64,000 nt of DNA from Gemmatimonadaceae bacterium (GTDB lineage: Bacteria; Gemmatimonadota; Gemmatimonadetes; Gemmatimonadales; Gemmatimonadaceae): assembly GCA_046598315.1 (NCBI GenBank), contig JBKJIY010000079.1:4931-68930 (forward strand), written 5' to 3'. Every line of letters starts with the position of its first letter. Position 1 is the first letter of the stretch. The translations under genes and the position numbers were made by a program. Shown here in pieces: positions 3,721 to 52,772 of this stretch. A model generated the notes under the pieces. It saw only the letters and a list, made by a program, of their open reading frames with translations. It did no database searches and was not told the origin of the DNA.

Positions 3721-3735
3721 CCGTTGTGCCGCCGA

Positions 3736-5127
3736 TCAGCGCGCGGGGAGAGCGACAGGCGTGCGCGGCAGGCGCTCCGGCATCTCGGCCAGCACGTACG
3801 CGTACACCGCCATCGTCGCCACGCACTTCGCCACCTCGCGCGGATCGAGCTTGTCCGGCGTGTCGGCGTCGGTGTGGTGGTACCAGAAATAGCGCGTGCC
3901 GTCCACGTGCAGTCCCGCGCCGGGCACGCCGGCGCGCAGCAGGGGACCGATGTCCGCCTCGCCATCACCGACCGACACCGAATCGGCACCGATGCGCTTC
4001 AGGAGTGGCGCGATGCGGCGCAGCATGGCCAGCGCGGAGTCGGTGCCCACGGCGGCGATGCCGTATGGCCGGAACACGCCGTTGTCCGATTCCATGGCGA
4101 ACACGTGCTTGTCCACCTCGGCGGCGTGCGTGTCGCGATACGCCAGGCCGCCGCGTGTTCCGTTCTCCTCGTTCGTCCAGGCCACCACGCGCACGGTGCG
4201 ACGCGGGCGCAGCCCGAGCTGCTTCATGAGCCGCACCGCCTCCCACGCCGCCACCACCCCGCCGGCGTCGTCCATGGCCCCCTGCCCCACGTCCCACGAG
4301 TCGATGTGGCCGCCGATCACCACCACCTCATCGGGGAGCTCGCGTCCGCGGATCTCCGCCACCGCGTTGCGCGATGGCGCATCGGGCAGCATCTGCGCGC
4401 TCATGCGCAGCGTGACCGTCACCTGCTGCCCACGATCCTGCAGGCGGTGCATGAGCATCGCGTCTTCCACGGTGATCGCCGCGGCGGGAATGCGCGTGGC
4501 GGCGGAGTCGTAGCGCATGCTGCCCGTGTGCGGCGAGTTCATGCTCGACGAGGCCACGGAGCGCAGCAGCATGGCGACGGCACCGGCGCGCGACGCCGCG
4601 TTCACGCCCGTGCGCCGATAGGCCGACGTCTGCCCGTACGTGGTGAACGGCACGTCGAACAGCACGATCTTTCCCCTGGCCTCGGCGGCCCGTGCCTGCA
4701 GCTCCTCAGAGCTGGACACGACGAGTACGGGCGCGGTAATGCCGCCGGCCGGCGTGCCGATGGATCCGCCCAGGCCGAGCATCGAGAGCTTCTTCACGCG
4801 CGGCGTGATCATCTCCGCCGACTCGGCGCCGCGGACCCAGTGCGGCACCATCACCGGCTCGCCGCGCACCGCTTCCAGGCCATCGGCGCGCATGCGATCC
4901 AGCGTCCAGTCGATCGACCGCTCGAGCGCTGGCGAGCCGCTCAACCGGTGACCGAAGGTGTCCGTGAGCTCGGCGATGCGGTGCCAGGCGGCGCTGTCCG
5001 CGAGCGCCGCGTCGATGAGCCGGTCGGCCGCGGCGCGGTAGCGCTCCGTGGTCTGGGTTACAGCGAGTCGCGGCGTGAGGAGCGCGGCGAGCGCGAGGAG
5101 CGCGGTGCTGCGGGCGGCCAGTCGCAT
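3736..5127 (-). CDS. M28-family zinc aminopeptidase with PA-like insert, secreted
   Basis: ORF 3736..5214. The ATG at 5127 gives MRLAARSTALLALAALL. The metal-ligand region is VVIGGHIDSWDVGQGAMDDAGGV, with NEENG and HHTDADT motifs typical of M28. Confidence 0.85.
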   Translation of the reverse strand: MRLAARSTALLALAALLTPRLAVTQTTERYRAAADRLIDAALADSAAWHRIAELTDTFGHRLSGSPALERSIDWTLDRMRADGLEAVRGEPVMVPHWVRGAESAEMITPRVKKLSMLGLGGSIGTPAGGITAPVLVVSSSEELQARAAEARGKIVLFDVPFTTYGQTSAYRRTGVNAASRAGAVAMLLRSVASSSMNSPHTGSMRYDSAATRIPAAAITVEDAMLMHRLQDRGQQVTVTLRMSAQMLPDAPSRNAVAEIRGRELPDEVVVIGGHIDSWDVGQGAMDDAGGVVAAWEAVRLMKQLGLRPRRTVRVVAWTNEENGTRGGLAYRDTHAAEVDKHVFAMESDNGVFRPYGIAAVGTDSALAMLRRIAPLLKRIGADSVSVGDGEADIGPLLRAGVPGAGLHVDGTRYFWYHHTDADTPDKLDPREVAKCVATMAVYAYVLAEMPERLPRTPVALPAR

Positions 5128-5223
5128 GCGGATCGTTGGTTCGGGCGAAGAAGTGGTGCGAGGAAACAAGCTGCTCCCGGTGTCGGCGCACAACAAGCGG
5201 GGTCGCGCCTGCACGCGTCGATG

Positions 5224-6390
5224 TCAGTTGGCGAGTGCAGGGCGTCCGGGTGCCAGCTCGCGCTCGAGGAAAGACGAGATCACCCGATACGCCAACTGCG
5301 CGCCGAGACCCGCCGGCGCCAGGTCGAAGCCGTGCTCGGCCCACGGAAGCTCCACGGCGATCACGGGCACGCCCGCGGCGCGCAGCGCGCGCGCCGCAGA
5401 GCGGTTGAAGTCCGCTTTCACCACGTGATCGCGCGCGCCATAGAGCAGCAGCGTGGGGGGCAGGCCCGGCCGGATGTGCGACACCGGCGACGCGTCGCGG
5501 TAGTGCGCTGCCTGTTCAGCCGGCGTGCCGCCCAGGTAGTTGCGCAGCACCTCCTGCACGCCGATCGGGTCGGGGCGCGGCAGGTCCACGTAGCCCTTGA
5601 CGAGATCGAATGGCGCATAGAGGGAGACGACCGCGCGGATGTGGAGGGGACCGGGCGTGTACGCCGCCAACTCGGCGAGCTGTCCGCCCGAGGAACGCCC
5701 CAGGAGGGCGACGCGGGCCGTGTCGATGCGCCAGGCGGATGCCGAATCGCGCAGCAGCGCGAGCGCGCCGCGCACGTCGTCGAGCTGGCCCGGAAAGCGC
5801 GTCTCCGGCGCGTGCCGGTAGTCGATGGCCGCCACGGCGAATCCGCGCTGCGCGAGGACGCGGCTGACGTTCCGGGCCTGCGTTGGATCGCCCGAGCGCC
5901 AGGCGCCGCCGTAGATCACCACCACCGTGGGCCGCGGCAGCACGCTGGGCCGCGCGTAGAGATGCATTGCCAGCGGGGAGCCGTCGGCGGCGCGGTACGC
6001 GACGACGTGCTCGACGACATCGGGCGATGGCCCGAGCCCGCGCACGGCGGCGACGAGCGAGAAGCGCGGTGGAGAATGCTCGAGCCCCAGTTGCGCCGCC
6101 GCCGAGCGCGCAGCGCCGGCAAAGCGCGCGACCGGCCAGAGCGCGACGCAGGCGCCCGCAACGAGCAGGATACTGAGAACGCCGCGTGCCGAGTGATGCG
6201 CGCGCAACAAGCGCCACACCAGCGGCAGCACGAAGAGATCGAGCAGCGCCAGCAGCGGCGAGAGCTCGCTCGCCGCGACGGCGAGAGTGAGCGTGCCCGC
6301 CGACCAGGGCGGCACGACGACGAACGCCGAGAGCGCGACGAGCGGCACGCCGAGGAGAAAGGCAACAATCTGGGCGACGGAGCTTTTCAC
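5224..6390 (-). CDS. Alpha/beta hydrolase (esterase/lipase-type) with N-terminal multi-TM segment
   Basis: GTG start at 6390. The first 100 or so aa are hydrophobic helices. Oxyanion-type motif VIYGGAWRSGD and nucleophile elbow GRSSGGQLA are present. Confidence 0.75.
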   Translation of the reverse strand: MKSSVAQIVAFLLGVPLVALSAFVVVPPWSAGTLTLAVAASELSPLLALLDLFVLPLVWRLLRAHHSARGVLSILLVAGACVALWPVARFAGAARSAAAQLGLEHSPPRFSLVAAVRGLGPSPDVVEHVVAYRAADGSPLAMHLYARPSVLPRPTVVVIYGGAWRSGDPTQARNVSRVLAQRGFAVAAIDYRHAPETRFPGQLDDVRGALALLRDSASAWRIDTARVALLGRSSGGQLAELAAYTPGPLHIRAVVSLYAPFDLVKGYVDLPRPDPIGVQEVLRNYLGGTPAEQAAHYRDASPVSHIRPGLPPTLLLYGARDHVVKADFNRSAARALRAAGVPVIAVELPWAEHGFDLAPAGLGAQLAYRVISSFLERELAPGRPALAN

Positions 6391-6453
6391 TTCTGTCTTC
6401 CTGTCTTCCTGTCTTCCTGTCTTCCTGTCTTCCTGTCTTCCTGTCTTCCTGTC
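6391..6453. repeat. 8-bp microsatellite: seven perfect ttcctgtc units (6398-6453) plus one 7-bp variant (6391-6397). It reads (GACAGGAA)7-GACAGAA on the minus strand.
   Basis: Counted directly in the sequence. It abuts the GTG start (6390) of the minus-strand hydrolase gene and lies in the divergent intergenic region with the 6620 gene. Confidence 0.95.
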
Positions 6454-6619
6454 TCTCGGAGCAGATTAGCGGACACGGCTCGACCTGCGCTACTGCGCGC
6501 GACAGGTTCCGGGGATTTCGTTGTCCTCGGCCACCGTTCTGCTCATACTGTACCTCACCGGTAACCGGCAACAGTAACCGATCCGTGACCGCGTTCCTTT
6601 TCCTCGTTCCTCGCTCCGC

Positions 6620-7537
6620 ATGCGCACGGCCGTTCGCCGCCGGGCCATCGGGCCGGTGCTCCTGCTCGGCATTCTCGCGGGGTGCGCGACCAAACCCGTC
6701 GGGCGCTCCATGATCTCGTACGACGAGCTCTCGGGCGCGCCCGCGCCGGCCGGCGGTGAGCGCATCGTGTACGGGAGCGATCCGCTGCAGTTCGGTGTGC
6801 TGCGGTTGCCGTCAGGGACGAAGTCCGCTCCCGTCGTGGTGCTCATGCACGGCGGCTGCTGGCGCTCGGCATTCGATCTCGGGTACATGGCGCACGCCGC
6901 GGCGGCGCTCACGGCGGCGGGGTACGCGACATGGACCATCGAGTTCCGCCGTCTCGGCGACGCGGGCGGAGGCTGGCCTGGTACGTTTGCCGACGTCGCC
7001 ATGGCGACGGATCACGTGCGCGCCCTTGCCACGGCGCACGCGCGGCTGGACACCACACGCGTTGTGCTCGCGGGCCATTCCGCCGGCGGGCAGCTCGCGC
7101 TCTGGAGCGCATCACGCGCCGCGGACCGATCGCACGACGAGCTGCCGAGCGGCGCCACCCCACTTCGCGTGTCCGGCGTGGTCAGTCTTTCGGGCATCAC
7201 GGACCTGGCCGACTACGGACGCCGGCCCGGCGCCTGCAACAGCGCCGTGACGCCGCTCATGGGCGGCACCCCCGCCGAACAGAGGGCACGCTATCGCGCC
7301 GTCAGCCCCGCCGAGCGAATCCCGATTGGCGTGCCGATGCGCCTCGTCCACGGAGGCGAGGACACCATCGTGCCAGTGGAGCAGGTACGGAGATTCACCG
7401 ACCAGGCTCGCGCGGCCGGCGATCGCGTCGTGCTCGACGTCGTCGCTGGCGCCGGCCACTTCGATCTGGTCGCGCCGCAGTCGATCGCGTGGGCGACGGT
7501 CATCGGAGCCGTCCGCGCACTCGTCCCCACGCCGTGA
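6620..7537 (+). CDS. Alpha/beta hydrolase (esterase-type) lipoprotein, paralogue-like to 5224-6390
   Basis: Lipobox LLLGILAGC. Motifs VLMHGGCWRSAFD and GHSAGGQLA. C-terminal His region GAGHFD. Confidence 0.8.
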   Translation: MRTAVRRRAIGPVLLLGILAGCATKPVGRSMISYDELSGAPAPAGGERIVYGSDPLQFGVLRLPSGTKSAPVVVLMHGGCWRSAFDLGYMAHAAAALTAAGYATWTIEFRRLGDAGGGWPGTFADVAMATDHVRALATAHARLDTTRVVLAGHSAGGQLALWSASRAADRSHDELPSGATPLRVSGVVSLSGITDLADYGRRPGACNSAVTPLMGGTPAEQRARYRAVSPAERIPIGVPMRLVHGGEDTIVPVEQVRRFTDQARAAGDRVVLDVVAGAGHFDLVAPQSIAWATVIGAVRALVPTP

Positions 7538-7590
7538 GCTGGATTCCATCGCGCCGCGGTTGAACTGCGGTCACGGATCACGGGATGTCG

Positions 7591-7674
7591 AGCAAGGAAA
7601 CGGCGGATCTTCATTGAATGGTCGGGCCAACGCGCGAGGAGCCTTCACTCGAGGCGAGGGATCCGTCGTTGCGC
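7591..7674 (+). repeat. Diverged copy (D) of the ~100-bp inverted-repeat intergenic element family
   Basis: The left end agcaaggaaacggcggat pairs with the reverse complement of atccgtcgttgcgc. The interior attgaatgg...gggcc resembles copy B. It shares the flank tgaactgcg with copy E. It is shorter and more degenerate than the other copies. Confidence 0.4.
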
Positions 7675-7726
7675 CCCGCGTCCGTGCCATCCGTGACCGC
7701 CGTTGGCCAGGGCGCACGGGAGCAGG

Positions 7727-8866
7727 CTACCGGAACACGTGCGGCACGAACCGCGACGTGTTGTCCGTCACCCAGCCATCGGACTCGCGCACGCCCATGC
7801 CGCCAGCCTCGTTGCCGATGATCCAGCTGCCGATCACCGGACGGCGCCCGTCGATCAGCGGGATGGGCGCCAGCTCCTGGAATACGTAGCCCTCCGCGCC
7901 GTACTCCCCGGTGGATTCCACGTGCTCCTTCATCGTGTGCACGGTGATGTTCGCCCCCTCGCGCGAAAGGAGCGGCTTCTTCACCCATTCGAACATGCCG
8001 TGCGGCTCGTCGAAGTACGCCGGCAGCAGATTGCCGTGTCGGGGGAAGAGCTCCCAGAGGATGGGCAGGATCCCCTTGTTGGAGAGCACCATCTTCCACG
8101 CCGGCTCGATCAACTGCGTCTGTGAGAGCGCGAGGTTCTCGGCGAAGGGCTCGTGCACGAGCCACTCCCACGGATAGAGCTTGAACAGGGTATCGATTGG
8201 CGCATCCTCACGGTCGCACAGCTCGCGCGCCGCGGGATCCCAGCCGATGTCGCTCATGGAGAGCAGCTTCACCTGAAGGCCCGCCTGCGCGGCGGTCTCG
8301 GCGACGTACGCCGCGGTCATGCCGTCCTCCAGCTCGTCCATGGAGGCGAAGTGGATCTGCGGACCGAGCGCGCCGGCGGGCGGGAGCGAGGGCCTGATCT
8401 CCTGCCACCGCGCGACGAGCCGCTCGTGCAGCGAGTTGAACTGGTCGATGCCCGGATGTACCGCCTTCGCCCAGTCCCACTGGATCACCGACGCCTCGAG
8501 CAGCGATGTGGGCGTGTCGGCGTTGTACTCCAGCATCTTGGGCGGCGACACGCCGTCGTACGCCAGATCGAAGCGGCCGTAGAGGCTCGGCGGCTCGTGC
8601 TCCCAGCTCGCCTCGATGAGCGGGATGGCGTGCGCGGGAATGCGAAGCTCCGCATAACGACGTTCGTCGATCACGTGCTGCACCGCTTCCAGCGCGCGCT
8701 CGTGCAGCTCGTTCGTCGCGCGCTCCACGGCGTCGATCTGCTGGGCGGTGAAGCGGTAGTAGACGTCCTCCGTCCAGTAGGGCGTCTGCCCGGTGTGCCA
8801 CTTGAGCCCCCGCGCCTCCACGAGCTCCTGCCAGCCGTCACGCGGGGTGCTCGCGATGCGCTCCAC
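7727..8866 (-). CDS. Glutathionylspermidine-synthase-like ATP-grasp protein (YgiC/YjfC family)
   Basis: 379 aa with a GTG start. The N-terminus PRDGWQELVEARGLKWH...TPYWTEDVYYRFT and overall length match the preATP-grasp GspS homologues. Confidence 0.85.
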   Translation of the reverse strand: MERIASTPRDGWQELVEARGLKWHTGQTPYWTEDVYYRFTAQQIDAVERATNELHERALEAVQHVIDERRYAELRIPAHAIPLIEASWEHEPPSLYGRFDLAYDGVSPPKMLEYNADTPTSLLEASVIQWDWAKAVHPGIDQFNSLHERLVARWQEIRPSLPPAGALGPQIHFASMDELEDGMTAAYVAETAAQAGLQVKLLSMSDIGWDPAARELCDREDAPIDTLFKLYPWEWLVHEPFAENLALSQTQLIEPAWKMVLSNKGILPILWELFPRHGNLLPAYFDEPHGMFEWVKKPLLSREGANITVHTMKEHVESTGEYGAEGYVFQELAPIPLIDGRRPVIGSWIIGNEAGGMGVRESDGWVTDNTSRFVPHVFR

Positions 8867-9265
8867 TCAGCCGCCGCCGAATCCGCGCGAGCCGCCGATG
8901 CCGCCGAATCCGCCGCGCACCACCGCCGTGCGCGGCCGCGACGCATCGGAGCGCGCACGGATGCCGCGTGCCGTGGGCGAATAGGACGACATCGGCAGCG
9001 CGCGCGCGCGTCCTCCCGCGGCCACGAATCGTGAATAGCCGTTGTAGTAGAACAACGGCGCGTACGCATACGCCATCGGGAACCAGGTGCCCTGGTTGTA
9101 ATAGCCCTTGTTGGCCACCGCGTACTCGCAGGCCTGCTGCGAATAGTTGTTCGGCTTGCAGGGATCCACGCCCAGCGCGGGTGTGGATGGCCCGCACCCC
9201 GTAGCGGCGGCGAGTGCCGGCACGAGCACGAGCGGAACGGCGGTCGAACGCTTCTGGGAAGGCAT
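8867..9265 (-). CDS. DUF1190-like lipoprotein (YgiB/YjfM-like partner of the ATP-grasp gene)
   Basis: Lipobox AAATGC. A Cys pair is present in DPCKPNNYSQQACEY. The Gly-rich C-terminus VVRGGFGGIGGSRGFGGG resembles the E. coli YgiB tail. Its stop directly abuts the start of 7727-8866. Confidence 0.65.
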   Translation of the reverse strand: MPSQKRSTAVPLVLVPALAAATGCGPSTPALGVDPCKPNNYSQQACEYAVANKGYYNQGTWFPMAYAYAPLFYYNGYSRFVAAGGRARALPMSSYSPTARGIRARSDASRPRTAVVRGGFGGIGGSRGFGGG

Positions 9266-9305
9266 GCGATGTACTACGGAAAGAGGACCCGGACTGTTCC
9301 GAAAG

Positions 9306-10151
9306 CTACTCCCGTCGCAGCGTGGCCTCGATGAGGCCGTAGGGCTCGGGAGCGGGGACGAAGATCTCGTTCGTGTTGGGGAGCCCGAACGGCGTGAGGT
9401 CCACCACGAGATGATGCCGGTTGGGCATCGTCAGGCGAATCTCGTCCATCGCGGCGCAGGCGTCCAGCGCTGCCTGGCCCATGGCATAGAGGGTATGCTG
9501 CACGGACTTGCTGTCGTGCTCGGAGAAGGCGGCGAGCATGGCGCGGCGCACGACGTCGAAGTGAGCGGCGGCGCCACTGGCATCACGGTATCTCCACTGC
9601 GCGGTGATGGAAGTGGCCAGAATGCGGTCCTCCGTCTCGCGTAGCGTCGTGTACCCATCGCGTGGGTAGCCGGTGAACGCCGACCGCGCCGATTTGAGCA
9701 CGACGAGCCCTTCGATTCCCGCGTGGACCACTGGCGCCTGCCCCCGCTCGAGGCGCACCGTCGCGGTGCGTGCCTCGCCGCCGGCATGCTCGAAGGCGTG
9801 GTCGTGCGCATCGGCTCCGCCAGGCAGCCGCCGCCAGCCGTGTTCCGCCACGCGTACGCGCGACACGCTCGCCGACGGGCTCGCGCCCAGAAAGTGCCTG
9901 GCAAGGACGAGCGCGAACTCTTCCGGCGCACCGAGCGCGTCCTCCGCGGCCCTTGCATATACGGTGTTCTTCATGGTGTCGGTGGGGAGCACGTCGCTGT
10001 TGTCCCCATCGCGATGCGCCCGCTCGAACGCGCCCTCCAGCGCGATGTCCACCGTGAGATCCCGGATCTCGTGTCGCGCACCGTGGCGAATGACCTTCAC
10101 CAGCCGCACCGCCGACTTGCCGTAGCTGTTGCTGGCCAGAACGACGCCCAT
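9306..10151 (-). CDS. uox: Cofactor-independent urate oxidase (uricase)
   Basis: 281 aa. The N-terminus NSYGKSAVRLVKV, the motif LPTDTMKNTVY and the two-T-fold length are typical of bacterial uricase. Pathway context supports the call. Confidence 0.9.
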   Translation of the reverse strand: MGVVLASNSYGKSAVRLVKVIRHGARHEIRDLTVDIALEGAFERAHRDGDNSDVLPTDTMKNTVYARAAEDALGAPEEFALVLARHFLGASPSASVSRVRVAEHGWRRLPGGADAHDHAFEHAGGEARTATVRLERGQAPVVHAGIEGLVVLKSARSAFTGYPRDGYTTLRETEDRILATSITAQWRYRDASGAAAHFDVVRRAMLAAFSEHDSKSVQHTLYAMGQAALDACAAMDEIRLTMPNRHHLVVDLTPFGLPNTNEIFVPAPEPYGLIEATLRRE

Positions 10152-43020: not shown

Positions 43021-43224
43021 GTGCAATTCTCCGTCATCGCGCTCAACGTGCTCTACGCCGTCATCGGCGTCGTGATCATGTTCGTCGCCTATCGCGTCAT
43101 CGACCGGCTCACTCCCGAAGTGGATTTCCCCGCCGAGCTGCACAAGGGCAACGTGGCCGTGGCCATCTTCATCGCGGCGATCTTCCTTTCCATCGCCCTG
43201 ATCATCGGCAAGGCGCTCGGCTGA
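43021..43224 (+). CDS. DUF350-family small membrane protein
   Basis: 67 aa with a GTG start and two TM helices. VIDRLTP..D...L..GNVAVAI is the characteristic motif. 1-nt overlap with the next gene. Confidence 0.7.
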   Translation: MQFSVIALNVLYAVIGVVIMFVAYRVIDRLTPEVDFPAELHKGNVAVAIFIAAIFLSIALIIGKALG

Positions 43225-43889
43225 TGTCACGCACGGCGCGGCTCCTCTCCGGGTTGCTCGTGCTCTGGATGCTCGTGCCGAGCGCGAGCGCGGGAGCGCA
43301 GGGCGCGGCCGATCGGGCCAGGGCGAAGCTGCGCGCCGCGGCCACGTCCGTCGGCAGGGCGGCCGAGGCGCAGCAGGCCCGCAAGGCCACCGAGCGATAC
43401 GATCCCATCTTCCGCAAGTACACCAAGCGGTACTTCGGCATCGGCACAGACTGGCGGCTGTTCAAGGCGCAGGGCATGGCCGAAAGCGACCTGACGCCCA
43501 CGGCGCGGAGTCGAGTCGGCGCGCGGGGCATCATGCAGCTCATGCCAGCCACCTATGGGCTGATCCAGTCGGCGCTGCCGCAGTTCGGTGCGATCGACAA
43601 CCCGGAGTGGAACATCGCCGCCGGCATTCTCCACGATCGCGATCTGTGGCATACCTGGAAGAAGGATGTCCCCGACGAGCAGCGCTGGGATTTCGTCTTT
43701 GCCGGCTACAATGCGGGCGAGGGTACGATCAGGCGGGCGCGCCGCACCGCGGCGGCCGCGCGGCTCGACGACTGGAGCTGGCAGAGCATCGAGCAGGTGG
43801 CGCCCACGGTGCAGCGGTGGCGCTATCTCGAGACCCTGGGCTACGTGCGGCGCATCAGAGCCAATCACCGCGCGATGCCCGACCGGTGA
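43224..43889 (+). CDS. Lytic transglycosylase (SLT domain)
   Basis: It has a signal peptide plus the catalytic and structural motifs AQGMAESDL, GIMQLMPATYG and AGYNAGEG. Confidence 0.85.
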   Translation: MSRTARLLSGLLVLWMLVPSASAGAQGAADRARAKLRAAATSVGRAAEAQQARKATERYDPIFRKYTKRYFGIGTDWRLFKAQGMAESDLTPTARSRVGARGIMQLMPATYGLIQSALPQFGAIDNPEWNIAAGILHDRDLWHTWKKDVPDEQRWDFVFAGYNAGEGTIRRARRTAAAARLDDWSWQSIEQVAPTVQRWRYLETLGYVRRIRANHRAMPDR

Positions 43890-43908
43890 CTCGCGCGTAG
43901 ACTGCGGC

Positions 43909-44607
43909 ATGAAGCTGCTCAAGTATCTGGCAAATCTCGGCTACGGCACTCGGCGCGACGTGGAGCGCATGCTGCGCGAGCGGCGCGTGACGCGTGCCGA
44001 TGGCTCGGTGCTGCGTGAGGGCGATGTATTCACCCACGACGACCTACGCGTCGATACCATGCCTCTCGACGCGCCGCCGGGCTCGCTCGTCATGCTGCAC
44101 AAGCCTGCTGGATATGTGTGCTCCACGCGCGACGCGAGCCGGCTGATCTACGAGCTGCTTCCGCCCCGATTCACGCAACGCTCGCCGGTGATGGCCCCGG
44201 TCGGACGCCTCGATCGCGACACGTCCGGCCTGCTCATCGTCACCGACGACGGCCAGCTGAATCACCGCATCACCTCGCCGCGCCGGCATCTCGCCAAGAC
44301 GTACGAGGCGCGGCTCGCCAGCGACCTGCGCGGCGACGAAGAAGAGATATTTGCCGGTGGCACCCTGCTCCTCGACGGAGAGCCTGCGCCGCTCGCACCG
44401 GCTCGGCTCGAGATCGTCTCGTCCCGCGAGGCGCGCCTGACCATCACCGAGGGTCGATATCACCAGGTGCGGCGCATGTTCGCCGCGGTGGGGAATCACG
44501 TGACCGCGCTTCACCGCAGCGCCATCGGGGGATTGGAGCTCGGCGACCTCGAGCCGGCTGCATGGCGGCTCCTCGACACCACGGACGTGGATCGCCTGTT
44601 CGCGTGA
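43909..44607 (+). CDS. RsuA/RluB-family pseudouridine synthase (RsuA-sized)
   Basis: The ATG at 43909 gives a 232-aa product. It has an S4-like N-terminus KYLANLGYGTRRDVERML and the catalytic motif GRLDRDTSGLLIVTDDG. Confidence 0.88.
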   Translation: MKLLKYLANLGYGTRRDVERMLRERRVTRADGSVLREGDVFTHDDLRVDTMPLDAPPGSLVMLHKPAGYVCSTRDASRLIYELLPPRFTQRSPVMAPVGRLDRDTSGLLIVTDDGQLNHRITSPRRHLAKTYEARLASDLRGDEEEIFAGGTLLLDGEPAPLAPARLEIVSSREARLTITEGRYHQVRRMFAAVGNHVTALHRSAIGGLELGDLEPAAWRLLDTTDVDRLFA

Positions 44608-44619
44608 GCAGGCGCGCCG

Positions 44620-45825
44620 TTACCTGGTGGCGGTCAGCACCTTGAAGCGGGGTCCGTCGTGCAGGTTGACGATGTTCCCGAAGCGGCGCGAAATCACCTG
44701 CTCGTAGGGCAGCGTGCGGTTGGCCACCAGATACAGGCGTCCGCCGGGGTTGAGCACCTGCCACGCATCCTCGATGAACTGCAGCGGCACGTCGAGCGCC
44801 GTCGTCTTACCTACATGGAACGGCGGGTTCGTCACCACCACGTCGAACCGCTCGCCGAGCACGGCGGAGGCGATATCGCTGGCCAGCGCGCGGTAGCGCG
44901 TCACGCCGTTGGCAGCTGCTGAGCGTGCCGCCGAGCGCACCGCCTCCACGTCGGCGTCGAGCATCGTGAGCTCGCCGGTGCCCGAGAGACCCGCGGCGAC
45001 GATCCCCAGCGCGCCCCCGCCGCAACCCAGGTCGAGCACGGATTCCCCCGCGCTCACCTGCATCGTCTCGGCGAGGATCTGCGTCGCCTCGTCCACATGC
45101 TCCCACGAGAAGATGCCGGGCCTGGTGAACAGCCGGCACTCTCGGCCCCGCAATGTGGACGACAGCTCGTGGAACGCATCAGGATGCACGTACGGGTTTG
45201 CCAGCTCTGCATCGGCACCCGGCGCCTCGCCTCGTTTGCTCGCCACGACGAGCCGGTGCGTGCTGTCGCGGGCGAGCACGATCGCGCTGCCGAACAGCTT
45301 CTCCAGCGTACGCGTCGCCGTCTTGATCCCCTCGTTCGTGGCCCCGGCGATATAGCACTTGCCGCCCACGTGGAGGACGCGAAACGCGTCGTGGAGAAGC
45401 TGGAGCAACGCGAGCCGCTCCTGCGGGATCCGGATGGCTACCACGTCGGCACGGAACTCAGCTGGCAAGCCCGATGCGCCGTGCGCGAGCTGCACGTCTC
45501 CTGTCGTCACGACACTCGCTGCGAGGGTGCGGGTGGCCGACTCCACTGAGAGCACGTTTCGGTCGGTGAGCCTCACACGCGAGGCGCCGTCGCGAACGGA
45601 CGCCACGGCAGCGAACAGCCCATTGCCGCAGTTCATGCCGAGCGCCAGGTCGCCGGCCGAGACGCGCACGCGCTCGGACAGCAGCAGCACAGAGGGATCG
45701 AGACGGCCGTGCGCCACCACACCCGGCTTGGTGGCGACCGGAAAATTGGTGCCCGCGACCTTTACGGAGACCTGCTGCCACTGGTGGTAGTCCACGCCGC
45801 CGTGCGTCCTTCTGTCTGCTGCCAT
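44620..45825 (-). CDS. RsmC/RlmG-like rRNA (guanine-N2) methyltransferase with tandem MTase folds
   Basis: 401 aa. It has the SAM motif VLDLGCGGGALG and the catalytic motif VVTNPPFHVG. Confidence 0.85.
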   Translation of the reverse strand: MAADRRTHGGVDYHQWQQVSVKVAGTNFPVATKPGVVAHGRLDPSVLLLSERVRVSAGDLALGMNCGNGLFAAVASVRDGASRVRLTDRNVLSVESATRTLAASVVTTGDVQLAHGASGLPAEFRADVVAIRIPQERLALLQLLHDAFRVLHVGGKCYIAGATNEGIKTATRTLEKLFGSAIVLARDSTHRLVVASKRGEAPGADAELANPYVHPDAFHELSSTLRGRECRLFTRPGIFSWEHVDEATQILAETMQVSAGESVLDLGCGGGALGIVAAGLSGTGELTMLDADVEAVRSAARSAAANGVTRYRALASDIASAVLGERFDVVVTNPPFHVGKTTALDVPLQFIEDAWQVLNPGGRLYLVANRTLPYEQVISRRFGNIVNLHDGPRFKVLTATR

Positions 45826-45917: not shown

Positions 45918-46373
45918 CTAGCGCGCTGGCACGGCGCGGAACTGTCCGGCGACTCGCTGCGGGACGCCCGTGCTGTCGGAGGGAAAGGTGATCGTCCACA
46001 GCCCCGTGATGGTACCGTCCACCCCGATGACGCCGGTGTGGTGAAAGCGAGCGTTATCGAAGTCGAAGCGGATCGCCCGACCGGCGTCGACTGTTCCTAT
46101 CACCGAGCCGACACAGTCGACGATCGCGGCCGGCGAGGTGAGCGTGGACTGACATTGACCAGGAAGTCGGTAGGACCCCCCCGCTGTGTCGTCGGCTCCA
46201 TCCTGGAGGCGCAAGACACCACGCAGCACTGGTTGATTGCCGTCGAGAAAGATCGCGGTGTAGTCATAGATGCCACCGACCAACACTCGGGACTGCGGCT
46301 CGCTGAGGCGAGTGGCGCAGCTCGTCGTGATGATGAGCAACGCAGCGGTACAGAAGCGGGGGAGAGGTCGCAT
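45918..46373 (-). CDS. Hypothetical small lipoprotein, last gene of the repeat-protein module
   Basis: 151 aa. The N-terminus is MRPLPRFCTAALLIITTSC. It starts 21 nt downstream of the 46395-48848 gene. No family recognised. Confidence 0.55.
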   Translation of the reverse strand: MRPLPRFCTAALLIITTSCATRLSEPQSRVLVGGIYDYTAIFLDGNQPVLRGVLRLQDGADDTAGGSYRLPGQCQSTLTSPAAIVDCVGSVIGTVDAGRAIRFDFDNARFHHTGVIGVDGTITGLWTITFPSDSTGVPQRVAGQFRAVPAR

Positions 46374-46394
46374 ATCGGAACGATCGGAGAAGGG

Positions 46395-48848
46395 TTACCA
46401 GAGTGTGCGGGTGAGTGCGCTGCTCGCCGTACAGGCGCTGCCAGCCGACCTAGCGCCGCGCAGTTCGTCTAGGCGGGTGCGCCCTGCCGTCGCCTCACAA
46501 GCCACCGCCATGCCGACGGCCCAGTTGCGCGCGAGCGGCCATCGCACCAGCCCCCGCACCCCTGAGGCATCCAGCCGATCACGATGGAGGGTGTGGGCGA
46601 GCGTCGGGCCGGGTGCGGCCTCGACACCATGAAGCGTCGCAGCCTGATTGCGCAGCAGCCGCGCCCGGACGTCCAGCCGTAGTCCGCTGCCGGTGCGATG
46701 ATTCCAGCCCGCCTCCACGCCTCCGGCAGTGGCGGCCCATACGCATCCGCCGGATTCGCCACTGGACACGACCGCAGTGCCTGGGCTCGCGAGCCTCGCT
46801 GGCGGCGGGGCCCCGCAGCTCCAGAGCGCCCCGGTTTGCATCTCGAGGGAGAGCGTTCCGCTCGGCGACTCGCGTGTGAGGCGGGCGACCCCACCGACCT
46901 GGGCCCCTGGCGCGAGGGTGGAGAAGACGATGGTTCGCTGGGCGGTCAGGCCGACGATCCCGGACCAGCGCGCGGTCGTACGGGAGACGGCCGTGAGCGT
47001 CGACACGCCTGTACGCCATGCCTGAACGCTGATGCCCGGGAGGATGGCCCGCGTCACTCCGGGAATCGCGAAGCGATCTCCGAGCACCAGCAGTCGCGCA
47101 CCACCTGGCCGGGCGCCCGAACTGTCGGCACCGTGGAATCGGGCAAGTGCCAACGTGGCGTGACCCTCGCCGGCTCCGCTGGAATGCAAGCCTCGCCGAA
47201 AAGCCGTGAGCTCTCGCATCTGGCTCGTCCAGTTCGCCGTGGCTGACCACACCAGCCCGCGCGCACGTGTACCAGCAGCGGATCGTACCCACTCTAGTGC
47301 AGCGGCCGATCGCTCCAGACCATCACGCGGGGCGAAGGCCGCGCCGGCAACGCCAAAGCCGCGCCCGATGCGCTCGTGGCCCACCTGCAGGCGCGTGGCC
47401 CCATTCAGCGGAGTCGCGACTCCGAGCAGCACAGCCTCCGGACGCGTCGCGAGGTCAGCGAGCGAACCGGTGGTCGTCCACCCCGCCTTGATCTGTCCCA
47501 CGTGTGCGCTGTCACCCAGAGCGCGAAGGGCCGCCGACGGATTCACCGACCGGAGCGGAACGACGGTAGTCACGTCCGCCGAGTAGGCCCATGGCCACCG
47601 CGAGGTAGCCCCGCTGCCAGGAAGGAGGCGAAGCAGCGCACCGCGCAGCGCCAGCGGGCTCACCGTCGGATCGCCGAGCGAGAGTCCGGCGGCGGAGAGC
47701 CGGCCTCGCCCATCCTCGGTCGCGAGAGCGCGCATGCCGAGTGGTCTCATCCAGGGCAGCGCGACGTCCTTGATGCGAACCGTGGCCACGGCGCCAGTGG
47801 CATCGACACGCGGTGTGTCGAGAAAGAGAAACGCTCCCGCCGCGGGACGCCATGGAAGGAGGTCAGCTCGGTTCTCCGGCACCGCTCGCGGAAAACGTCG
47901 ATTCGGATCGACCTCCAGCTGCTCCCAGGGGCGAATCACCGTCTCGGGACGCAGCACTACCATCGCCGATCGTGATGCTTCTGGCCCGTGCCACCGCGCG
48001 CTCACGCCAACGCTGGCTACCCCGCGAGCGTCGTACACCACGGGTCCGCCGGTGGCCACGTTTCCGATGAGCGACACCGATGTGACCCCGCGAAGTCTCG
48101 CCCCAGTTGCTTGCGCGCCGCGCCTCGGCGTCGCTGTGCCTCCAGGCGACGGATGTTGCGGTCCGTCGAGCGCCCACCTCGTGCCGCGCAGCTGGAGTTG
48201 CATGCCGCGGAAGCTCGTGCCGAAGGGCACTGTTGCAACCCCGTACCACCACCCCGCCGAATCCGTCGGGACGAGGGTGATGGTCACCGGCACCCCATTC
48301 ATCGGCATCGGCACTCCTGCACGTGGAGCGCCGCCTCCCATCGGGGGCAAGTGCCAGCCCGCCGTGCGACGTGTCTGTGGATCGAGCGTGATACGCAGGT
48401 TGCGCCGTGCGGCGCCGCTGTCGACCTGGATGTCGATCTGCCAGCACTCCGACTCCACCCCCAGGCAGTCGAATGTCATTGGGACAGCGGGAGCCGACAC
48501 GAGTTGGTTCTTCATCGTCCACGACAGTGCGCTCCGGACTCTGAGCACGGCCGCCTGGCCTCCTGCCGGCTCCGTACACCATTGCACCGTTGAGGCGATC
48601 TCATCCGGCGTCGGACGCCGTCTCGCGGCCACGACCTCTTCACTTGTCGCCATCACGATCGCCGTGGCGCACCCCACGGCAGGAAAGGGCGCGGTGGCGA
48701 GCGTCGCTGGGACAGACGGGGCCGGCGCGGCACTCGTCTGAGCGAGCGTAGCCACACTCGCCCCCGCGAGAAGGCCTGCCACGAGGGCGCTCATCCTGCC
48801 ACGCCGTGTGGTGATGATGAAATCGCGCATCGCGCGAGCATGCATCAA
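46395..48848 (-). CDS. Hypothetical large secreted protein, putative outer-membrane beta-barrel
   Basis: 817 aa. The alternative ATG at 48794 gives signal peptide MSALVAGLLAGASVATLAQT. The C-terminal ~350 aa are rich in short alternating strands and the protein ends in ...TRTLW (terminal aromatic). The ATGA overlap with the upstream gene applies if the 48848 start is used. Confidence 0.6.
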   Translation of the reverse strand: MMHARAMRDFIITTRRGRMSALVAGLLAGASVATLAQTSAAPAPSVPATLATAPFPAVGCATAIVMATSEEVVAARRRPTPDEIASTVQWCTEPAGGQAAVLRVRSALSWTMKNQLVSAPAVPMTFDCLGVESECWQIDIQVDSGAARRNLRITLDPQTRRTAGWHLPPMGGGAPRAGVPMPMNGVPVTITLVPTDSAGWWYGVATVPFGTSFRGMQLQLRGTRWALDGPQHPSPGGTATPRRGAQATGARLRGVTSVSLIGNVATGGPVVYDARGVASVGVSARWHGPEASRSAMVVLRPETVIRPWEQLEVDPNRRFPRAVPENRADLLPWRPAAGAFLFLDTPRVDATGAVATVRIKDVALPWMRPLGMRALATEDGRGRLSAAGLSLGDPTVSPLALRGALLRLLPGSGATSRWPWAYSADVTTVVPLRSVNPSAALRALGDSAHVGQIKAGWTTTGSLADLATRPEAVLLGVATPLNGATRLQVGHERIGRGFGVAGAAFAPRDGLERSAAALEWVRSAAGTRARGLVWSATANWTSQMRELTAFRRGLHSSGAGEGHATLALARFHGADSSGARPGGARLLVLGDRFAIPGVTRAILPGISVQAWRTGVSTLTAVSRTTARWSGIVGLTAQRTIVFSTLAPGAQVGGVARLTRESPSGTLSLEMQTGALWSCGAPPPARLASPGTAVVSSGESGGCVWAATAGGVEAGWNHRTGSGLRLDVRARLLRNQAATLHGVEAAPGPTLAHTLHRDRLDASGVRGLVRWPLARNWAVGMAVACEATAGRTRLDELRGARSAGSACTASSALTRTLW

Positions 48849-50878
48849 TCAGGCAGACGAATCAGTGTGAGTGCGAGTCCGCCGCCGGTCACGACGGAGG
48901 CGCCGCTCGCCGTTGGCGCACGCGCAGCGCTCGCGCTGGTGTTCCGGATGCTCGCGCCGAGCAAGGCGGCCTCAGCGCGACGGAACTCGGCCTCGGCGTC
49001 GGTTGATTTCGCGGATTGCGTGGACGTGGCCTGGAGCGTGGACCGGAGCACTGGAGCGATACGCGAGGGAGTGGCGGTGATGCCATCCGCGGTGATTCCC
49101 ACCGCGACCGTCGCTCCCGGTTGGGGTTCCGCCGGAGTGGCGACCAGCAGGAAACGAGCAGTTGCGAGGGCGGGCATCAGACAGAGCGTGCTGCCGGTGG
49201 CGTCGGAGGTGAGCAGGCTATCCGTGCTCAGTGAGCTTCCCGCGATGGTGAGCGGACGAATGCTCCCAGGTTCGAGAGTGAGCCGCGCGACTGCGGCGCA
49301 GTGGGGGAGCGTCGACACGACTTGCGTTCCCAGGTGAATACGCGTGGTCACTCCGGGAGCGGTATCGAAGCGCAGAAACGCCGCCCCGCCGGCGGGCAGG
49401 GACAGGCGAATGGCGCCGGCGCTATCGAGTGGCAAGAGGCCGAGCGCGACCGGCGGTTGCGCGCTCACGGCAAGGATGGCGTCATAATCCCAACTGCGAC
49501 GGCGCCAGCGTGCGTCGGCGGCGGCGGCTTGCAGCCCCATCGCGTTCGCTGCATTGCCCACCGCCCAATCGTGCGTCCATGAAGGCCAATCGGCGCCCAA
49601 CGCCCGCGTCAGGTTCGCCGTACCCTTCTCGGTCGAGCGCACGAGCGACGACAGGATGGCGTCCTCGCGCGCGAGAGGATTCGTGCCCACGACGCGATCG
49701 ATGGCATAACGAAGAAACTGCCAGATGGCCCCGCGCGTCGGGAGGTCCGCGTCTCTGTCGAAGGCGCCCTGCGCAGCCGGGTTCGCGTACCAGGTTCCCA
49801 ACCGATCCACGTCGGGGCGGAGGAAACGTTGATAGGGCGCCGTGGGATCGCTCGGGGGAGCGAATACCTCCGCACCGAGAAGGGTACGGGGCTGCGTCCC
49901 GGTGGCGGCAAGATACGCGCGCTCTTCCATGACATGGCTCAACCCCTCGTTGAGCCAGATCTCGTCGGAGGGTGCGCCCTGCTGCTCGTAGAACCGCGAC
50001 CCTGCGTTGACGAGATGCTGCAACTCGTGTCCGATGGTGCCGATGGACACGCGCCGAACGAGTGCCGCGGTGCGGACGTTACCGCCCACCTTCCCTGCGG
50101 GATCCGGGGCCAGCATGTAGACGATCTCTCCTTCATAGCTGCCGGGACACGCGGTGAAGCGACCGAAGCCGCGGCGGGGAAGGAGATCGCGGCTCGTGAA
50201 GAGACCGGCAATGAACGAGGTCGCACCCGGCGGAGTGAGCTCATTGATGAGCCGTGTGTACAGCACCACGATGCGCGCATTGGCATCGAGGTCGGTCCAG
50301 GGACCGAGAGTGCGGCGTGTCAGCGGGGCCGTCAGCGTGTCAACCGCGCGCATGATCGAGGCGTAGTCGGCGTCGCTGAGGCTGCCGGCTGGATTGTCCA
50401 GATCTTCGGCCAGCCACACTTCGCGCCCGCGGCCCACGATCCTGGCGCGGCCCGAGGCGAGGCCGGTGCAGGTCGTGAGAGATCCCGAGGCGAAGTGCAG
50501 CAGGGTGTCCACAGTCACCGTGATCGTGTCTGCGGGACCATCGGACGCTACTCGCGCCACCACACGCGCGCTGCCGATGGCGGCGGCTACCAGCATGCCT
50601 TGCGTTGACAGGCGCACGGTTCCCGGATCGAGCACCGTCCACTGGAGCGGCGGCGTAATCTCGGAGCCGGCCGCGTCATACACCGTGGTGCGGAGTCGCG
50701 CGCTGTCGCCCGGCGCCAGGGTGATGGCAGTGGGGCGAATCCTGAGGAGAGACGCAGGCGCGTCGACCAACGCGGTCGGCAGATCGGGACGACATCCAGT
50801 GCCCCCCGCGCACAGCAGAGCGGCCAGGACGGCACGACACCGGCGTGCAGACGAATGGGGCGGTACTGAGGCGCGCAT
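48845..50878 (-). CDS. Putative lipoprotein zinc metallopeptidase (gluzincin HExxH...WLNEG) with an N-terminal Big_2-like domain
   Basis: ORF 48845..51004. The ATG at 50878 gives MRASVPPHSSARRCRAVLAALLCAGGTGC. The Ig-like segment ITLAPGDSARLRTTVYDAAGSEI...GSARVVARV is present. IGHELQHLVN followed by EIWLNEGLSH resembles the M1-type HEXXH-(18+)-WLNEG arrangement. Confidence 0.68.
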   Translation of the reverse strand: MRASVPPHSSARRCRAVLAALLCAGGTGCRPDLPTALVDAPASLLRIRPTAITLAPGDSARLRTTVYDAAGSEITPPLQWTVLDPGTVRLSTQGMLVAAAIGSARVVARVASDGPADTITVTVDTLLHFASGSLTTCTGLASGRARIVGRGREVWLAEDLDNPAGSLSDADYASIMRAVDTLTAPLTRRTLGPWTDLDANARIVVLYTRLINELTPPGATSFIAGLFTSRDLLPRRGFGRFTACPGSYEGEIVYMLAPDPAGKVGGNVRTAALVRRVSIGTIGHELQHLVNAGSRFYEQQGAPSDEIWLNEGLSHVMEERAYLAATGTQPRTLLGAEVFAPPSDPTAPYQRFLRPDVDRLGTWYANPAAQGAFDRDADLPTRGAIWQFLRYAIDRVVGTNPLAREDAILSSLVRSTEKGTANLTRALGADWPSWTHDWAVGNAANAMGLQAAAADARWRRRSWDYDAILAVSAQPPVALGLLPLDSAGAIRLSLPAGGAAFLRFDTAPGVTTRIHLGTQVVSTLPHCAAVARLTLEPGSIRPLTIAGSSLSTDSLLTSDATGSTLCLMPALATARFLLVATPAEPQPGATVAVGITADGITATPSRIAPVLRSTLQATSTQSAKSTDAEAEFRRAEAALLGASIRNTSASAARAPTASGASVVTGGGLALTLIRLPD

Positions 50879-50965
50879 GACCAACCGCGAGTGAGGACCG
50901 GATCCGCAGCGGCCGAGACAGGCCTGGCTCGCGAGACACATTCGGTATCCAGGAACGAGAGGGAC

Positions 50966-50996
50966 GGCGGCCTCCGAATCGTGATGGGAGGCCGCC
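50966..50996 (-). terminator. Perfect 10-bp GC-rich hairpin 15 nt downstream of the repeat-protein stop codon, a possible attenuator
   Basis: Arm ggcggcctcc (50966-50975), an 11-nt loop, then arm ggaggccgcc (50987-50996). No clear U-tract follows on the minus strand. Confidence 0.45.
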
Positions 50997-51011
50997 GCGG
51001 TCACTCCCGGG

Positions 51012-51401
51012 TTATTGAAGCAGCGCCGCTCCAGGGCCGATCATGCCGGAGCTGGAGGCCACGATCACGCCGGTGCCGGAAGCGAGCATGTACCCGGAGC
51101 TCGAGGCCACGATCACGCCGGTGCTGGACGCCATGTCGTACCCGGAGCTCGACGCCACGATCACGCCAGTGCTGGACGCCACGATGACGCCAGTGCTGGA
51201 TGCCACGATGACGCCAGTGCTGGATGCCACGATGACGCCAGTGCTGGACGCCACGATGACGCCAGTGCTGGATGCCATGTCGGTGCTCGATGCAACGATC
51301 ACTCCGTATCGCCCGATGGCGTCGGTCGTGCCCTGCGCGCTTGCGGTGGCCGTGGTGGCGAGGAGCAGGATAGCCGTCAGGGAGGAAAGACGCTTGATCA
51401 T
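51012..51401 (-). CDS. Small Sec-secreted repeat protein carrying 8 GVIVAS motifs, five of them as perfect STGVIVAS octapeptides
   Basis: ORF 51012..51467. The ATG at 51401 gives signal peptide MIKRLSSLTAILLLATTATASAQG. The mature part is GRYGVIVASSTDMAS(STGVIVAS)x5...SSGYDMASSTGVIVASSSGYMLASGTGVIVASSSGMIGPGAALLQ. GC-rich third positions and the same strand as the downstream genes support this frame. Confidence 0.7.
   Translation of the reverse strand: MIKRLSSLTAILLLATTATASAQGTTDAIGRYGVIVASSTDMASSTGVIVASSTGVIVASSTGVIVASSTGVIVASSTGVIVASSSGYDMASSTGVIVASSSGYMLASGTGVIVASSSGMIGPGAALLQ
51059..51306. repeat. Tandem DNA repeat inside the repeat-protein gene: 2 x 48 bp, then 5 x 24 bp (51155-51274), then degenerate units
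   Basis: The unit is ccacgatgacgccagtgctggatg. Units at 51179, 51203 and 51251 are identical. The unit at 51227 differs at 1 nt and the unit at 51155 at 2 nt. Confidence 0.92.
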
Positions 51402-51956: not shown

Positions 51957-52772
51957 ATGATTCGCCTCATCTGCATCGATGTGGACGGTACGCTCATCGG
52001 TTCGAGCGGCACCGTGCTCCCCGCGGTCTGGGCCGCCGCCAAGCGCCTGCGCGCCAGCGGAATCCGTCTGGCCATCTGCTCCGGTCGCCCAGGCTTCGGC
52101 GACGCGCGCGGGTACGCGCGGCGTCTCGATCCGGACGGCTGGCACGTCTTCCAGAATGGCGCAAGCGTGGTGCACCCGATCTCCGGCGAATCGCGCTCCA
52201 CCGCCATCGCATCGGAACTCGTCTCGCGCCTGGTCACGCGCGCGAGAGAGACCGGACGAATTCTGGAGCTGTATTCGGATGTCGCCTACGCGGTGGAGAG
52301 TACTGAGCTCCGAGCACGACAGCATTCGGACCTGCTCGGAGTGCCGTTCGTCGCCACGCCGTTCGACCAGTTGACCGACCCCGTCGTTCGCATGCAGTGG
52401 CTTCTTCCACGCGAGGAGGCGTCGTCGGTGCTGCGAGAGCTGGAACCAGGCTTGGAGGGATCTGCGTCGACCTCCCCGCTCATGGCGGACACCTCGTTCA
52501 TCAACATGACGGCGGCGGGCGTGAACAAGGCGACGGCGGTGCGCGCGCTGGCCGACGAGTACGGCATCTCGCTGCCGGAGGTGATGTTCGTGGGAGACGG
52601 TGAGAACGACCTCGGGGCCATGCGCTCGATCGGCTTTCCGGTGGCGATGGGCAACGCCGAACCGTCGGTCAAGGACATCGCGCACCGCATCGTGGCCCAC
52701 GTGGACGAGGGCGGGCTCGCGGAGGCGATGGAGCTGGTACTGGCCTCGCGGGACCGCTCACCAACCGTCTGA
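51957..52772 (+). CDS. Cof-type HAD-IIB phosphatase
   Basis: Motifs are ICIDVDGTL (motif I), SGR (motif II) and the motif III/IV region FVGDGENDLGAM. Confidence 0.88.
   Translation: MIRLICIDVDGTLIGSSGTVLPAVWAAAKRLRASGIRLAICSGRPGFGDARGYARRLDPDGWHVFQNGASVVHPISGESRSTAIASELVSRLVTRARETGRILELYSDVAYAVESTELRARQHSDLLGVPFVATPFDQLTDPVVRMQWLLPREEASSVLRELEPGLEGSASTSPLMADTSFINMTAAGVNKATAVRALADEYGISLPEVMFVGDGENDLGAMRSIGFPVAMGNAEPSVKDIAHRIVAHVDEGGLAEAMELVLASRDRSPTV

Follow-up and report, generated by a model that had tools for sequence, protein, structure and literature searches.

A rare cell-envelope gene set with a short-repeat secreted protein, a probable outer-membrane barrel and a small lipoprotein in a Gemmatimonadaceae bacterium

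Results

Gene order and coding signals

The gene content of a 64,000-nucleotide stretch of DNA from a Gemmatimonadaceae bacterium (contig JBKJIY010000079.1, positions 4,931 to 68,930 of the forward strand; this whole stretch is called the window below) was analyzed around four consecutive minus-strand genes, here named P1 to P4. They encode a secreted octapeptide-repeat protein, a metalloprotease lipoprotein, a probable outer-membrane beta-barrel and a small lipoprotein, and an earlier note, made from the sequence alone, had proposed them as a candidate surface-fibre or amyloid-like module. We find that the module is a real, conserved and rare cell-envelope gene set of diderm bacteria. Its features in the window are the following; for each open reading frame (ORF) and element the basis of the description is given in brackets.

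51012..51401, minus strand: P1, 129 amino acids (aa), predicted Sec-secreted octapeptide-repeat protein (ORF and translation)
51038..51277, minus strand: tandem DNA array of P1, period 24 nt (also 48 nt), coding for the octapeptides (Tandem Repeats Finder, TRF)
50950..51010, minus strand: G+C-rich hairpin directly 3' of the P1 stop codon (RNA fold and shuffles)
48845..50878, minus strand: P2, 677-aa predicted lipoprotein with Ig-like and M30-type gluzincin domains (family profile, motif)
46395..48848, minus strand: P3, 817 aa, predicted secreted, probable outer-membrane beta-barrel (AlphaFold2 model, Foldseek)
45918..46373, minus strand: P4, 151-aa predicted lipoprotein, obligate neighbour of P3 (family alignment, synteny)

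The four co-directional ORFs and their junctions are where the note had put them: 133 nt between P1 and P2, a 4-nt overlap between P2 and P3, and 21 nt between P3 and P4. Two start codons deserve a comment. The 677 aa of P2 are counted from the same ATG as in the public record, and the ORF could reach 51004. For P3 a TTG start gives 817 aa, the public record beginning one codon later (816 aa); an alternative start at Met19, after GGCAGG, would leave a gap of about 50 nt between P2 and P3.

All four ORFs have an excess of G+C at third codon positions of the type seen in coding DNA. The G+C content at these positions (GC3) is 0.83 for P1 and 0.75-0.77 for P2-P4, compared to 0.84-0.89 in the flanking housekeeping genes (43224-45825 and 51957-52772). 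The flanking genes encode an SLT transglycosylase, a pseudouridine synthase, an MTS methyltransferase and a HAD hydrolase. The low GC3 of P2-P4 relative to these flanks fits a horizontally acquired or weakly expressed insert. Signal peptides and lipoboxes of the window proteins were read by eye; together with conserved cysteine pairs they predict that all the proteins of the module are extracytoplasmic.

The repeat protein P1

P1 starts with a Sec-type signal peptide, MIKRLSSLTAILLLATTATASA, followed by QG (cleavage between ASA and QG), in agreement with the earlier note. The mature protein has 107 residues (22% Ser, 15% Gly, 9% Thr) and is made of about ten octapeptide units, chiefly STGVIVAS with variants such as SSGYDMAS and SSGYMLAS; the GVIVAS motif occurs exactly 8 times, the number that had been announced. 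At the DNA level TRF describes the array with a period of 24 nt (10.0 copies, 81% matches, score 243) or of 48 nt (score 273). It is the sole long tandem array of the window whose period is a multiple of 3.

The array is also covered by an antisense ORF with high GC3, which shares its third codon positions with P1. The differences between repeat units nevertheless distinguish the two frames: 88 out of 115 are located at codon position 3 of the P1 frame, and the ratio of synonymous to non-synonymous codon pairs is 76 to 20 in this frame versus 46 to 48 in the antisense one. The public protein set does not contain P1, and therefore the annotation of the record made no P1 call. Neither the word-indexed search nor HMMER returned a homologue, and upstream of P1 we found no clear Shine-Dalgarno sequence, no sigma-54 promoter and no match to sigma-70 promoters. 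The substitution pattern, the predicted Sec signal peptide and the analogous repeat ORFs of homologous loci, described below, favour P1 as a gene under coding selection.

The AlphaFold2 model of mature P1, computed from the single sequence, displays 11 regular strands of 4 residues, one per octapeptide. The confidence of this regular array is low (predicted local distance difference test, pLDDT, 60.6) and no structural match is significant.

The metalloprotease lipoprotein P2

P2 has a lipobox and, at the N-terminus, a predicted Ig-like domain. Its catalytic domain is lugdulysin-like (H284-E285-xx-H288 ... E311), and only its closest orthologue shares its C-terminal extension. A direct phmmer comparison with lugdulysin (7bb8) gives E = 1.6e-7 over P2 residues 149-325, an alignment that spans HELQH and WLNEGLS, and the profile of the P2 family (32 homologues) reaches E = 2.6e-30 on the same structure. 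H284, E285, H288 and E311 are invariant in the 32 homologues and the lipobox cysteine, Cys29, is 90% conserved, all of which bears out the description of P2 as a gluzincin lipoprotein. By sequence and motif P2 is thus assigned to the gluzincins of lugdulysin/hyicolysin type (MEROPS M30), with catalytic residues predicted to be intact. Beyond the similarity of the catalytic domain, with HExxH and a downstream Glu, P2 differs from lugdulysin and hyicolysin in being a lipoprotein of a diderm, in its predicted N-terminal Ig-like domain and long C-terminal extension, and in its family, whose expansion to more than 500 loci is specific to Gemmatimonadota.

The Big_2 domain of the earlier note has a more nuanced status. 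P2 itself has no Pfam or NCBIfam match at E <= 1, Big_2 included, whereas PF02368 (Big_2) is present in many of its homologues and the N-terminal region of the family profile matches LigA and other Big_2 structures (E 1e-7 to 1e-8). The Ig-like domain is therefore visible in the family and its profile, and not in P2 taken alone.

The P2 family, found mostly in Gemmatimonadota, is very large: it comprises 101 protein clusters and occupies at least 511 genomic loci, whose contexts vary (for example beside S58 and NlpC/P60 peptidases). The best 80 of these loci contain no homologue of P1, P3, P4 or of the flanking genes. The family as a whole is consequently not tied to the module, and P2 was rejected as a marker of it, since synteny around these 80 loci gave no module genes.

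Some genes of the P2 family are directly followed on their 3' side by a second lipoprotein family of about 165 aa, with the motifs VGS.P.N, SV(D/N)G.PV and KVWVQGP..VQTYGV. Related loci are designated here by L numbers; this second family is found in L081 (9944-10447) and L083 (2412-2909), where it overlaps the upstream gene by 4 nt, and also in L001, L002, L007, L008, L019, L042 and L059. It could be a cognate partner or inhibitor of the P2-family metallopeptidases. Kinship between these proteins and P4 was considered and rejected: one pairwise BLAST comparison gave E = 0.001, but the family profile gives P4 no score.

The probable barrel P3

P3 has no sequence match in Pfam, NCBIfam or the PDB. 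An exhaustive HMMER search of 1.84 billion representative proteins was needed to see its family, because the word-indexed search returned P3 alone; it yielded 6 relatives (E 2e-17 to 9e-4), all without Pfam domain. Family members have 700-1075 aa and signal peptides. In their alignment the N-terminal part has a CGxxxxC loop and the C-terminal part has four invariant cysteines; the motif DPNRRFPR..PW..G.F.WLDTRRVD, which is strongly conserved, precedes HERIG.GF..GAAFAP.DG. P3 terminates in TLW, and the last residue is W or F in 3 of the 7 members.

An AlphaFold2 model was built from the 7 sequences (mean pLDDT 54, predicted TM-score, pTM, 0.48). Its confidence is low over residues 1-134; strands resembling beta-sandwiches cover residues 136-299, and about 21 long antiparallel strands, many of them at pLDDT 70-88, cover residues 353-815 (about 460 residues). 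Compared with the PDB by Foldseek, this model has 124 matches at E <= 1e-3. Those ranked 1 to 50, with E down to 2e-6, are without exception outer-membrane barrels: TonB-dependent transporters, OccK porins, LptDE, MtrB, FimD and SlpA. Their TM-scores lie between just 0.1 and 0.4, and therefore the fold class is supported and no family can be assigned to P3. At this low model confidence and these low TM-scores, we regard P3 as a probable outer-membrane beta-barrel in its C-terminal half, as the earlier note had suggested.

The small lipoprotein P4

The note had read P4 as a lipoprotein of 151 aa, and its Cys19 indeed aligns with the conserved lipobox cysteine of the family; Cys19, Cys74 and Cys87 are invariant in the family alignment. 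Neither the single sequence nor the family has a match in Pfam, NCBIfam or the PDB. P4 is 41% identical (E = 9e-34) to the product of the gene that follows the P3 homologue of L084. The lipoproteins of L087 and L089 are more distant relatives (E = 1.8e-4 with hmmsearch, 1e-4 with hhalign), and the hhalign alignment is collinear through the lipobox and both conserved cysteines. As judged from these searches, P3 and P4 represent two new protein families, covered by no curated library.

Recurrence of the gene set in other lineages

The genes surrounding the P3 homologues are distributed as follows:

L084: P3 homologue, 145-aa lipoprotein, S8 peptidase, 286-aa signal-peptide protein with a weak OMP_b-brl match
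L086: four genes in the same order as in L084
L085: 154-aa repeat protein, P3 homologue, P4 homologue, with a divergent sigma-54 activator and TPR gene upstream
L087/L088, L089 and L090/L091: P3 homologue, then a lipoprotein of 155-199 aa

P3 and P4 are adjacent in all 7 independent lineages, window included, in loci ranging from 51 to 80% G+C. The pair can be called conserved throughout because even the most divergent of the small lipoproteins are related to P4. In 6 of the 7 lineages (5 of the 6 besides the window) the pair is found together with a signal-peptide protein made of short repeats. In L085 it is located directly upstream of the P3 homologue and is made of about 14 units, ESGYILA and SRYMLAD heptads, encoded by a 21-nt array. 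In L087/L088 the heptads are GGTASWA, and in L089 they are imperfect and contain W. Contig ends truncate the repeat protein of L084 (GQLTINEAGFLTM..., of GQLTI type) and that of L086, which has GQLTI and GxLTVSEQ units and is encoded on the converging strand. P1 and the L085 protein have the variant SGY(M/I)LA in common; their pairwise E of 6e-4 carries little weight given the low complexity of the sequences. In-frame arrays of short period are rare in the background, with about 10 in approximately 1.08 Mb of related Gemmatimonadota DNA and none beside 80 other P2-family genes, and therefore the co-occurrence of repeat genes with the P3-P4 pair is not a matter of chance.

P2 is linked to the pair in a second lineage. 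Its closest homologue, P0002, is 39% identical end to end, C-terminal extension included. The C-terminus of P0002 is 93% identical to a partial ORF of L091 whose end overlaps the start of the closest P3 orthologue, and on L093, the contig of P0002 itself, the stop of the P2 orthologue overlaps the start of the P3 orthologue. The order P2-P3-P4 is therefore kept in this lineage, at about 80% G+C. In L084 and L086 it is an S8 protease that follows P4. We read the protease as a recurrent accessory and not as part of the core of the module.

The gene-neighbourhood comparison suggested at the outset speaks for the module in a modified form. The P3-P4 pair with a repeat protein recurs, and P2-P3-P4 is found again in the closest lineage, but the protease is not universal and the P2 family as a whole is not linked to P1, P3 or P4. 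Scans of metagenome contigs with P3 and P4 patterns found nothing.

Several other genes were observed in these loci. The S8 peptidases (L084 3598-6638, 727 aa; L086 3541-6724, 768 aa) are 43% identical to each other, and that of L084 has a weak FlgD_ig-like match at its C-terminus. The signal-peptide proteins encoded after them (286 aa in L084, 305 aa in L086) are 27% identical; from its OMP_b-brl match the L084 protein may be a second, small barrel. Neither the S8 peptidase nor the 286/305-aa gene has a counterpart in the window. In L085 the genes of the sigma-54-dependent activator and the TPR protein (1005-3394) diverge from the repeat, P3-homologue and P4-homologue genes and stand just before them on the upstream side; the search for a -24/-12 promoter gave a single sigma-54 match there, no better than chance. 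About 400 nt past the P4 orthologue, L090 (2463-3179) and L091 (3528-4244) encode a 238-aa PEP-CTERM protein, i.e. one sorted by exosortase. In L087, a contig of 58% G+C, the module is near an IS1595-family transposase, a patatin-like gene and a large AAA_11/AAA_12 helicase (1-9439), which hints at a mobile or variable genomic region. At 14246-14734 of L087 a gene had been called on the strand opposite to the GGTASWA ORF that bears the signal peptide. Since gene callers miss short-repeat genes, as for P1, or place them on the wrong strand, as in L087, such genes and systems are probably under-counted.

The hairpin between P1 and P2

The hairpin begins about 15 nt past the P1 stop, has perfect 11-bp arms (50965-50975 and 50987-50997) and a pyrimidine-rich tail. 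Its RNA fold has an energy of -38.1 kcal/mol (z = -5.45), a value equalled by 0 of 200 shuffled sequences. It is unique within the window and is the sole intergenic perfect inverted repeat of the module. A simple scan for terminators missed it because it has no run of T. It may act as a terminator, an attenuator or a stabiliser of the mRNA. No Rfam family was found, nor any significant hairpin after P4.

Comparison with known envelope systems

Profile searches of the four proteins, as the earlier note had recommended, found no match to a characterised system for P1, P3 and P4, and led to lugdulysin for P2. A literature search found no description of the module. Curli and Fap each associate a Sec-exported repeat subunit with a dedicated outer-membrane pore, and the two pores are mutually unrelated (PMC9268375); the export proposed for P1 would follow the logic of both. 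Curli resemble the module in the Sec-exported repeat subunit, in a dedicated outer-membrane export component (proposed for the module) that includes a lipoprotein, and in the clustering of genes (PMC9268375). Pfam and NCBIfam scans at E <= 1 detected no Curlin_rpt, CsgG or other Csg family in P1-P4, just as no motif of the curli family had been recognised at first reading, and the homologues of P3, of P4 and of the repeat proteins are also without Csg family match. The architecture differs as well: CsgG is itself the channel, as a 9-mer, whereas the module would rely on a probable barrel of about 21 strands and a 130-residue lipoprotein, no nucleator paralogue is seen in the module, and curli repeats are far longer than 8 residues.

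With Fap the module shares a repeat subunit and, with P3 as its probable counterpart, a dedicated outer-membrane beta-barrel; FapF is a trimeric porin, and the role of FapD is called unclear (PMC9268375). Pfam and NCBIfam scans of the module proteins showed no homology to Fap, no direct comparison with Fap sequences having been made. P3 is about twice the size of the much smaller FapF and differs from it by its N-terminal beta-sandwich regions. FapD is a predicted peptidase, and the proteases of the module are M30-like or S8, not of FapD type.

LptD/LptE offer another parallel: a barrel protein, probable in the case of P3, of some 800 aa that carries conserved disulfides and, N-terminally, a periplasmic beta domain, and that has a small outer-membrane lipoprotein as partner. 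LptDE is among the Foldseek matches of P3 (E = 2.6e-5, TM-score 0.21). The module is rare and accessory and comes with a repeat protein and a protease, whereas Lpt is universal and essential, and no LptD/LptE match was obtained with Pfam or NCBIfam. Membership of the chaperone-usher class was also rejected, there being no Usher, PapD or fimbrial Pfam match and FimD standing only at rank 47 of the Foldseek matches (TM-score 0.19).

Another tandem repeat in the window

A perfect 8-nt tandem repeat, CTGTCTTC, present in 7.8 copies, occupies window positions 6393-6454 in this 68% G+C genome. A minus-strand ORF of 388 aa (5224-6390) starts with GTG at 6390, directly downstream of the repeat, which on that strand reads as repeated GGAAGACA units. 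Its period is not a multiple of 3, and it could therefore be a slippage-prone promoter or 5' leader element.

Discussion

A role in the export or assembly of the repeat protein, as a surface fibre or coat, is the interpretation that we favour, with a confidence that falls a little short of even. P1 would cross the inner membrane via Sec and stay unfolded in the periplasm, then traverse the outer membrane through the P3 barrel, with P4 as partner or plug. Outside the cell its octapeptide strands would stack, giving a surface fibre or coat of beta-solenoid or cross-beta type. The protease would trim, release or clear P1, and the hairpin after P1 would let the subunit transcript exceed the transcripts of the machinery genes.

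Several observations weigh against this proposal. Concerning the subunit, P1 is small (107 mature residues), its single-sequence model is of low confidence (pLDDT 60.6) and has only a weak list of structural neighbours, beta-helical proteins such as bactofilin and ice-binding proteins at E >= 0.8; in addition, a period of 5-8 residues is much shorter than that of curli or Fap subunits. Concerning the barrel, the mean pLDDT of 54 is low, TM-scores do not exceed 0.4, and the barrel region of the window P3 is poor in aromatic residues with weakly amphipathic strands. The recurrence has its gaps too: repeat genes are cut by contig ends in four loci, no protease is visible in the available DNA of L085, L087 and L089, and the L090/L091/L093 lineage shows no repeat gene, its contigs ending before the expected position. 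Finally, transport through P3 could be export or import, and the hairpin could equally mark P1 as a separate transcription unit.

A glycoconjugate system has a small chance of being the right explanation instead: P1 would be a Ser/Thr/Gly-rich carrier or anchor, possibly glycosylated, and P3 and P4 would form a complex of barrel and lipoprotein at the outer membrane for handling a polysaccharide or glycoprotein, the kind of role put forward for GfcA, GfcB and GfcD. The model here is E. coli gfcABCD and yjbEFGH, genes of likewise unresolved function. Their products include a small secreted protein of 80-101 aa that is rich in Ser and Thr, a lipoprotein of the outer membrane and an outer-membrane barrel of 698 aa, and start and stop codons overlap (PMC8592465). 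The architecture of the module is similar in each of these respects, down to a barrel protein of about 700 aa and the overlapping codons; the Ser, Gly and Thr content of mature P1 given above suits such a carrier, and every repeat unit of the other loci contains Ser or Thr. The resemblance does not extend to homology, which was rejected: hhalign gives a probability of 0.04% for the P3 family against E. coli YjbH and of 0.4% for the P4 family against YjbF, and no Pfam match to the YjbH, YjbF or GfcC models was obtained. The surroundings differ as well, with no GfcC-like or capsule genes near the module and no Wza/Wzc or glycosyltransferase genes in the loci, and the repeats of the module are strictly periodic and hydrophobic in their core, unlike YjbE.

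We give only a slight chance to uptake or turnover, in which P3, as a large channel, would import peptides produced at the surface by P2 or the S8 proteases, P4 would be a lid or binding lipoprotein as in Sus or TonB-dependent transporters, and the repeat protein would be an unrelated passenger or regulator. The best Foldseek matches of P3 are indeed TonB-dependent transporters (YncD, FrpB, FhuE, E about 2e-6), 3 of the 7 lineages have a protease (M30-like or S8) beside the pair, and the P2 family is widespread without P3, often beside other peptidases. Against this, TM-scores are low for all barrels alike, which makes the ranking of TonB-dependent transporters unspecific, and Plug, TonB_dep_Rec and SusD gave no Pfam match in the family members (E <= 0.1-1). 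Membership of P3 in this transporter class was rejected, neither P3 nor its 6 homologues having Plug or TonB_dep_Rec and the structural likeness being generic to barrels. The loci contain no TonB/ExbBD or ABC importer genes, and import leaves the short-repeat secreted protein of 6 out of 7 lineages unexplained.

The contrast between the units, which are near-identical within a protein and wholly different between lineages, and a conserved machinery is typical of lineage-specific peptide products, and a protease with an intact active site is linked in 3 lineages. Both facts suggest a multi-copy precursor: the protease would cut P1-type polyproteins into many identical peptides of 5-8 residues, acting as signals or antimicrobials, to be released by P3 and P4. 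We consider this improbable, since there are no recognisable cleavage motifs between units and no protease is visible in 3 loci, since such short peptides do not require a dedicated barrel with about 21 strands, and since hydrophobic, beta-prone units would be unlike typical signalling peptides.

That there is no system at all, P1 being a spurious ORF on a DNA tandem repeat and the four genes being adjacent by chance in a high-GC genome, is very improbable: P1 is uncalled and without HMMER homologue, lacks a clear Shine-Dalgarno sequence or promoter and faces an antisense ORF of high GC3, and the best 80 P2-family loci lack P1, P3 and P4, but chance would have to produce the synonymous bias of the P1 frame over the antisense frame, its clean signal peptide, the analogous signal-peptide repeat ORFs beside P3/P4 in 5 other lineages, the adjacency of P3 and P4 in all 7 and the conserved P2-P3-P4 order.

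The export or assembly of a repeat protein as a fibre or coat can be carried one step further. The module might constitute a third, non-homologous outer-membrane pathway, after curli and Fap, that builds beta-solenoid or amyloid-like surface fibres; subunits with ultra-short repeats (5-8 residues) would pass through P3 barrels with an obligate P4, a surface protease would tune the process, and the subunit would diversify freely as the machinery stayed conserved. We advance this larger claim as a speculation that is rather unlikely to hold in full. The family is very rare (7 lineages) and found only in uncultured organisms, and its immediate reach is therefore limited. If the proposal is true, the module would be a new, independently evolved machine for the export and assembly of repeat proteins at the outer membrane, and its subunits would be the natural beta-repeat subunits of shortest period known. 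It would then bear on the biology of the envelope in phyla that have been little studied, Gemmatimonadota among them, on the design rules of amyloids and beta-solenoids, and on biomaterials.

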